Shown here piece after piece: positions 46,543 to 47,004 of a DNA stretch of 64,000 nt; the first letter of the stretch is position 1; each line of letters begins with the position of its first letter. Source of the stretch: Schmidtea nova. Taxonomy: Eukaryota. The position numbers were made by a program, and so were the translations under genes. Location: positions 48,422,001-48,486,000 of the forward strand of contig CM097883.1 in assembly GCA_044892505.1 (NCBI GenBank), given 5' to 3'. The notes below the pieces were generated by a model. The model was not told the DNA's origin, ran no database searches, and was given only the letters and a program-made list of their open reading frames with translations.

Positions 46543-47004
46543 ATGGAGGAAAAACTGAAAGAAATCGAGGAATTTTTCAACACCGAGAACGATACATTTG
46601 AGACAGTCTGCGAAAAAATAACCCGAATAAGAGCATCCGAATATGAGGAACCTACGACACAAACTGAGGAAACAACTGAGTTAATAAAAATCATAGAGAA
46701 AGTAAATAAACTCGATATAAATACGCGATATAAATGGTACAAAGCACGATTAGAGGATGCCGAGTTGAATATCAGATGCCGACATATAGAACAGCAGTTA
46801 AGCCTAACATATAACCGATGGATGTCGCAAGGGGTCGAGGCAACAAAACAATATAAACGATGTTACATATGCGAAGACAGTGAAATCCAAATAATGTTTC
46901 TACCATGCGGACATTTTCGATTTTGTAAAAACTGTGCGAATAAGTGTGATGAGTGCCCCATGTGCAATTTCTCTGTAGCTGATAAAATTGTAGTTTATTT
47001 ATAA
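46543..47004 (+). CDS. Accessory protein with C-terminal IAP-type RING finger (putative E3 ligase), 153 aa
   Basis: CYICEDSEIQIMFLPCGHFRFCKNCANKCDECPMC...IVVYL has C3HC4 spacing and the terminal position typical of cIAP/XIAP RINGs. No BIR domain. Confidence 0.88.
   Translation: MEEKLKEIEEFFNTENDTFETVCEKITRIRASEYEEPTTQTEETTELIKIIEKVNKLDINTRYKWYKARLEDAELNIRCRHIEQQLSLTYNRWMSQGVEATKQYKRCYICEDSEIQIMFLPCGHFRFCKNCANKCDECPMCNFSVADKIVVYL

Follow-up and report, generated by a model that had tools for sequence, protein, structure and literature searches.

A conserved BIR-less RING gene in the 5′ leader of Burro-type retrotransposons of Schmidtea nova

Burro elements and the copy under study

The closest described systems are the planarian elements Burro1-4 and GYPSM1, which encode a giant polyprotein with gag, a Bcl-2-like domain, an env-like fusion protein between gag and pol, and ankyrins (PMC6431247). 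According to the same source they carry TRAF/MATH cargo, accessory ORFs and a general theme of apoptosis and ubiquitin, and ORF1 of the D. tigrina-type Burro is 5,140 aa long; its section 7 names BIR, MATH_TRAF and an 'AIR1' RING/Zn motif, and holds no separate RING gene in the leader. One accessory protein of Burro1, B-IAP, combines BIR and RING; according to Lee et al. (Dev Cell 2026, via PMC13465017) it blocks caspase-mediated death. Through B-IAP, Burro1 reportedly supports the survival of planarian stem cells. Apoptosis and ubiquitin cargo in Burro elements and the published function of B-IAP are, then, already on record. In the literature listings and text passages searched, we found no description of the gene presented here. 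A separate BIR-less leader RING gene seems to be undescribed in these, although published figures, Grohme 2018, Lee 2026 or the Repbase entry GYPSM1 may annotate it.

The gene lies in a 28.5 kb, LTR-bounded Ty3/gypsy element of Burro type that runs past the end of the window, by which we mean the whole 64,000-nt stretch of DNA analysed (Table 1). With LTRs so nearly identical and a 4-bp target-site duplication, the copy is young. We take its primer-binding site to be tRNA-Pro-like; ARAGORN found no tRNA gene in the window. The likeness to Burro1-4 and GYPSM1 extends to kb-sized LTRs, TRAF cargo and a polyprotein of about 5,000 aa that contains ankyrins and, placed between gag and PR, an env-like domain, and the frame here equals in codons, stop to stop, the residues of the published ORF1 (PMC6431247). 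Compared with the elements described there, this copy is BIR-less and has its TRAF-like ORF 3′ of the polyprotein, where it is one of four accessory ORFs. A Bcl-2-like domain is known mainly from the Burro literature and is weakly indicated here: the Pfam Bcl-2 match at 53601-54080 has E 0.1, and there is no sequence match in the PDB.

Table 1. Coordinates of the leader gene, its domains and the surrounding features in the window.
Feature	Position	Strand	Evidence
5′ LTR, 3,278 nt, TG...CA	42937..46214	+	99.8% identity to 3′ LTR at L031:6138-9415 (just past window end); ATTG target duplication
Predicted promoter: TATA box in LTR, followed 29 nt from its first base by initiator-like TCAG	43330..43337	+	motif scan
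Candidate 5′ splice donor, AG/GT at 43509	43507..43514	+	motif only; donor-like site after TATA in A, D, E
Primer-binding site, 6 nt past LTR end	46221..46238	+	2,940 exact genome matches, 0 for reversed control
Splice-acceptor-like YYAG, 3 nt before ATG	46536..46539	+	motif
Leader RING gene, 153 aa, ATG to TAA	46543..47004	+	ORF, Pfam, genome copies, structure-sequence matches, selection
Helical domain of the N-terminus (aa 1-104), no known family: short helices (four), then a long one (73-104)	46543..46854	+	AlphaFold2, low to moderate confidence; residues conserved across families; dN/dS mostly 0.06-0.37
C3HC4 RING Cys107-Cys141 and C-terminal tail, Tyr152 at +11, Asn142 at linchpin	46861..47001	+	8 zinc ligands invariant in 14/14; register against XIAP/cIAP
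AATAAA overlapping stop codon, predicted poly(A) signal	47003..47008	+	motif
Conserved non-coding block behind leader gene, possible structured RNA signal	47070..47290	+	79-83% nucleotide identity to B and D, above that of the ORF
Second acceptor-like motif before gag frame	48651..48662	+	motif only; in A, B, D copies
gag-fusion glycoprotein-PR-RT-RH-IN-ankyrin polyprotein frame	48720..64000, past window end	+	5,140 codons between stops, 4,987 counted from first Met

The leader ORF begins 304 nt 3′ of the primer site and sits between that site (46221) and the gag frame (48720). The earlier note on this DNA had claimed a stand-alone accessory ORF in just this place, BIR-less and ending in a RING of XIAP/cIAP pattern, and the mapped structure of the element bears out its position. 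Pfam places zf-C3HC4_3 at residues 105-143 of the protein (44.4 bits, E 1.4e-11, against a cut-off of 27 bits). As for the BIR, Pfam detects none in 12 scanned ORFs or ORF pieces, and a 30-sequence BIR profile, which recovered both control B-IAPs at E 1e-22, detects none across the six frames of the whole element, so that the BIR-less reading holds on both counts. At least 150 genome copies, together with purifying selection (see below), confirm that the ORF is real and not a chance reading frame.

Several further features of the element and its surroundings were recorded. Upstream of its first Met (ATG at 49179) the polyprotein frame has 153 open codons (48720-49178), and a comparable open stretch of 77-197 codons is seen in most copies of all families checked; translation possibly begins there at a non-AUG codon or at a start that is spliced in. 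The LTR holds ORFs of 158 aa and 194 aa (44275-44751 and 45071-45654 in the 5′ LTR, L031:7475-8855 in the 3′ LTR), neither with a Pfam match; only the 3′ LTR has the 194-aa ORF in one piece, its 5′ counterpart being divided between two frames, and homologues of the LTR ORFs are present in LTRs of subfamilies B, D and E. Tandem arrays occupy 47418-47878 and 47990-48200 of the leader, with a 61-nt unit of 30/31-nt halves plus shorter repeats. At 37142-40707 the window also contains another LTR element, small and of gypsy type, whose terminal repeats (at least 92 nt) are identical and whose pol is spread over two ORFs. ORFs that resemble a protein-primed DNA polymerase of a Polinton-like element, at L033:5546-9265 (-) and in two further stretches, adjoin or lie inside Burro copies.

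Copies, selection and probable loss of the leader gene

A genome search with the leader gene returned at least 150 copies, and 133 of the best-scoring 150 are full length and stop-free. As a less biased sample we took the first 40, in chromosome order, of the 2,940 exact primer-site matches. A homologue lies within 7 kb at 31 of these 40 sites; 24 homologues are full length and open and seven are broken. Loss from most intact copies, which the earlier note had named as evidence against its reading, is therefore not what this position-ordered sample shows. By identity to the present copy (subfamily A), the homologues divide into subfamilies B (73-82%), D (65%), E (47%) and C (27-30%, with a protein of 160 aa), and family C accounts for 27 of the 40 sampled primer sites. 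Three more full-length homologues, also 160 aa, were found in assemblies outside this genome. A word-index search with a single-protein query recovered no homologue among 15 candidates; with the family alignment as query it gave three matches of similar length, of which two belong to the family and are full length. Longer candidates, 7,994 in all, gave one match, to an IAP over the RING only, which is weak evidence against fused forms of the protein.

The nine sites lacking a homologue comprise four with family C LTR ends, whose stretches have no gag or polyprotein match either, and five of a family F, one of these five assigned by its LTR end only. No trace of the leader gene was found in any of the five F copies, even by profile search. 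In the midpoint-rooted gag tree F and E are sisters (100/99), so the gene was most likely lost in F; F nevertheless exists as several near-identical copies, and the gene is thus dispensable in cis. Most sampled family C copies, for their part, are apparently internally deleted, the gag match being missing between leader gene and later polyprotein, and yet keep the leader gene; in two of these that were examined the TRAF-like and B-IAP genes are kept as well. The TRAF-like gene of the present element (L031:2716-4098, 460 aa, with a Cys-rich start, zf-TRAF and MATH) is common to subfamilies A, B, D, E and C, and family C has a second MATH inside its polyprotein.

The coding sequence is under purifying selection. 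Comparing A with B and D, dN/dS is 0.05-0.07 by NG86 where defined, with dS near saturation (for several distant pairs NG86 is saturated), while YN00 puts it at 0.11-0.17. Values are 0.14-0.30 for pairs that have diverged less and 0.33 for D against E. The ORF aligns to B and D without a gap over its 462 nt, between flanks that are gapped, most changes fall on third codon positions, and both domains of the protein are constrained. Over the same pairs the leader gene evolves 2-3 times faster than gag (dN 0.136 vs 0.060), a rate that may be expected of a part facing the host. Behind the gene, the conserved block at 47070-47290 has predicted hairpins with almost no covariation, and Rfam returned no match over 42900-49200, the block included; we regard it as a candidate packaging or processing signal.

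An IAP-type RING separate from B-IAP

Among solved structures, the leader protein matches XIAP (E 4.6e-11), cIAP2 (1.2e-10), cIAP1 (1.4e-9) and BIRC7 (3.9e-7) best, followed by CGRRF1, MYLIP, MEX3C and MIB1, every match being confined to the RING. A family profile search keeps this order of relatives and puts MDM2/MDMX far lower (E 0.002-0.07); fold scores from a whole-model search tie (MYLIP Z 7.2, BIRC7 7.0, MEX3C 6.9). With the RINGs of XIAP, cIAP1/2 and BIRC7 the leader RING shares spacing, terminal position and the aromatic residue at +11, and its identity to the XIAP RING is about 44%, so the XIAP/cIAP pattern claimed for it earlier stands. It differs from these proteins in having no BIR, UBA or CARD, an Asn at the linchpin and no tail Arg. 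The label 'IAP-type' suits the RING, yet the definition of an IAP calls for at least one BIR, which excludes the protein: of the features of the IAP (BIRC) family it has the C-terminal C3HC4 RING and lacks the BIR. MYLIP/IDOL, MEX3C, MIB1, MGRN1 and MDM2/MDMX, of the same Pfam family or of the tail-dimer type, are likewise built from a BIR-less substrate-binding module and a terminal RING, but score lower in sequence (E 2e-6 to 0.01), and none has the N-terminal domain of the leader protein. Small helix-plus-RING proteins of large DNA viruses, of the same fold (iridovirus 413R, ascovirus 16.4 kDa RING, baculovirus IAP2/3) match over the RING only (TM about 0.3) and give no sign of shared origin.

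For the whole protein AlphaFold2 (mean pLDDT 66, pTM 0.33) models a RING preceded by a long helix at 73-104 and, ahead of that, four short ones; in the N-terminal domain residues F11, K25, E42, Y63, R69, L70 and N76 are kept in all 14 aligned proteins. The N-terminal model (pLDDT 55) has no PDB fold match at E 0.001; in the ESM Atlas the whole protein leads to the RING family only and aa 1-103 to no usable match.

A tree of RINGs (51 rows, 56 columns) leaves most forks open. The earlier note had proposed a phylogeny with host IAP, MDM2 and baculoviral RINGs; in this tree the seven leader RINGs form one group (91/66, not firm) that stands apart from the host IAPs, and the row nearest to it is a mollusc BIR7B-like protein. 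Identity of the leader RING to host IAP RINGs is 35-46%, no closer than to unrelated RINGs. Descent from an IAP RING is at best likely, as the fold scores tie and the RING does not group with the host IAPs of this genome.

A BIR search of the genome finds mostly one ORF, of 389 aa with BIR and RING, which lies 3′ of the TRAF-like ORF in family C elements (both copies examined) and is probably the counterpart of Burro1 B-IAP (PMC13465017). From its BIR gene and the MATH inside its polyprotein, family C appears to be Burro1-like. Both of these family C copies also carry the leader gene, one intact and one broken, and the B-IAP slot is empty in all six examined elements of A, B, D and E. B-IAP falls in the RING tree with three RING exons of the host (96/93), and one of these exons is part of a host gene that contains introns and has a BIR exon. 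The tree is weak, and a clade of leader RING plus B-IAP is not rejected by an AU test (p 0.31). Three host IAP-type RING exons are clustered at C2:315.68-315.85 Mb, one with a BIR exon 7 kb upstream, and this cluster is the likely source lineage of B-IAP. B-IAP matches host IAP over BIR, linker and RING, whereas the leader gene does so over the RING only.

The leader gene resembles Burro1 B-IAP (PMC13465017) in ending in an IAP-type RING and in being an accessory gene of a Burro element; it differs in lacking a BIR, in having its own N-terminal domain, in lying 5′ of gag and in occurring in lineages that have B-IAP as well as in those that lack it. A shortened B-IAP is probably not what it is, given that family C carries both and only B-IAP groups with host IAPs, and because it is kept beside B-IAP in family C it should do something that B-IAP does not. 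The leader gene is a conserved accessory gene of Burro-type retrotransposons, fixed in place, under selection and independent of the BIR-bearing gene.

Predicted expression and function

Signals for separate expression recur among the subfamilies. Subfamilies A, D and E have a TATA box 384-401 nt from the LTR start, and their TATA, initiator-like and donor-like sites together fall at about 400-600 nt; in B no TATA was found by motif scan, and family C is different. A YYAG stands 0-3 nt upstream of the ATG in 5/5 subfamilies (background 3-6% of leader positions) and an AATAAA within 26 nt of the stop, again in 5/5 (background 5-15% of TAA triplets), counts that come from related subfamilies and are not independent trials. 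The retention of both motifs leads us to predict that the leader gene has an mRNA of its own. As a set, the motifs fit either a single promoter whose transcripts are alternatively spliced and polyadenylated, or trans-splicing of the operon kind. Four contigs that cover the whole stretch show no joint at the predicted splice sites, which has no bearing on splicing.

In this copy each of the four 3′ ORFs has a YAG 1-3 nt before the ATG; they are spaced 80-125 nt apart and have TGTAAATA motifs past their stops. Throughout A, B, D, E and C the 3′ accessory ORFs (here L031:2142-5933) lie 80-135 nt apart, most with a YAG and with TGTAAATA(A) after the stop. The array is reminiscent of operon-like or complex-virus-like cassettes, and gaps in flatworm operons are near 100 nt (PMC8629364).

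The explanation we favour, at about even chances of being right, is that the leader gene is expressed from its own spliced and polyadenylated mRNA as a small dimeric RING ubiquitin ligase, weak or E2-selective, whose helical N-terminal domain selects a host protein. A transcript from the LTR promoter would be joined to the acceptor before the ATG, either in cis from the LTR donor or by spliced-leader trans-splicing, and its end would be cut at the AATAAA on the stop codon; other RNAs would skip the gene and use the acceptor before gag. The RING would pair with a second RING, and tail Tyr152 would act in trans to close E2~ubiquitin, as does Phe616 of cIAP1, which packs on ubiquitin in trans and whose loss abolishes activity (PMC6349121).

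All 14 of 14 aligned proteins share the eight zinc ligands and, directly behind the first Cys, an Ile that is an E2 contact, an aromatic residue (Tyr or Phe) is found at +11 past the last Cys in every subfamily, and the RING ends the protein, as in dimers of the IAP, MDM2 and RNF4 type. Of the hallmarks of a tail-dimer RING E3 the protein thus has the zinc ligands, the C-terminal RING and the aromatic tail, and it lacks the Arg linchpin: that position is Asn in A, B, D and E, Lys in C and Asp in the outside homologues, never Arg. The position of cIAP1 tail Arg614 is taken by Val, Ile, Met or Thr, and the loop-2 Pro is absent from family C and the outside homologues. In RNF38 a linchpin Asn is among the two substitutions with the weakest affinity for E2~Ub, 42-fold down, XIAP is active with a non-Arg linchpin (Tyr), and E2~Ub binding does not track activity (all PMC12326332). 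The linchpin residues point to a likely weak or partner-dependent dimeric E3, and Asn in particular could make it weak or E2-selective. A homodimer prediction of the leader protein, made without the alignment, scored 0.00 and speaks neither for nor against pairing.

The N-terminal domain would replace the BIRs as the substrate-binding part, a role that we infer for a domain without known relatives. With such a domain in place of BIRs, the substrate is probably not a caspase or a protein with an IAP-binding motif; it may be another host factor of death or immune signalling, the direction in which the TRAF-like, ankyrin and Bcl-2-like cargo points. The earlier note's proposals that the RING could ubiquitinate host restriction factors, heterodimerise with host IAPs and complement the Bcl-2-like domain stay conjectural.

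A poor and variable linchpin (Asn, Lys, Asp) and a variable loop-2 Pro, next to a constant tail aromatic and constant zinc ligands, would also be expected of an MDMX-like partner or decoy, nearly inactive alone, that pairs through RING and tail with host IAPs or, in family C, with B-IAP. By shifting IAP self-ubiquitination and stability such a protein would protect or sensitise the cell without any BIR. The genome does contain intron-containing host IAP genes, and a title in the reference list of PMC6349121 says that the cIAP1 RING alone drives degradation of RING-bearing IAPs. We nonetheless consider this account unlikely, as 100 conserved N-terminal residues would be superfluous in a pure partner, the E2-contact Ile is invariant, and neither identity nor the tree brings the leader RING closer to host IAP RINGs than to unrelated ones.

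Less probable again is a ligase for the proteins of the element itself, such as Gag or polyprotein fragments, acting in assembly, budding or turnover. Retroviral budding uses ubiquitin, the element encodes a fusion glycoprotein, and in five subfamilies that differ in their other cargo the gene holds one position ahead of gag, being kept even in the internally deleted family C copies; against this, it was lost in family F, nested beside E in the gag tree, it evolves faster than gag, and the remaining cargo is host-signalling in kind. The notion of a cut-down B-IAP remnant, or of an upstream ORF that controls gag translation without any protein function, is very improbable and largely refuted by the selection signal, for although the gene is upstream of gag, one weak whole-length alignment to a B-IAP copy exists (27%) and the AU test leaves a joint clade standing, dN/dS is well below 1, the reading frame is gap-free between gapped flanks, both genes coexist at different places in family C, and host IAP is matched over the RING only.

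If the leader protein is the small dimeric ligase that we favour, an E3 gene in the leader of an LTR retrotransposon would be akin to the ligase adaptors that complex viruses carry as accessory proteins, and identifying its substrate would reveal a host pathway that restrains Burro elements. This gene is the second of IAP-type RING in Burro elements, probably acquired separately from B-IAP and shared more widely: all six examined elements of A, B, D and E are without B-IAP, and their subfamilies keep the leader gene. Knock-downs of whole elements would hit both genes, and the two therefore need telling apart. As a tentative and rather doubtful proposal, we speculate that the Burro programme is complex-virus-like or operon-like, each accessory ORF having its own acceptor and poly(A) signal, and that the leader gene is an older, BIR-independent ubiquitin tool, a new helical recognition domain joined to an IAP-type RING, which predates the capture of B-IAP and steers host IAP stability or a transposon-restriction factor in planarian stem cells of lineages without B-IAP. 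The question can be tested on the states that occur in nature, of which there are three: the leader gene by itself, the leader gene together with B-IAP, and loss of the leader gene.
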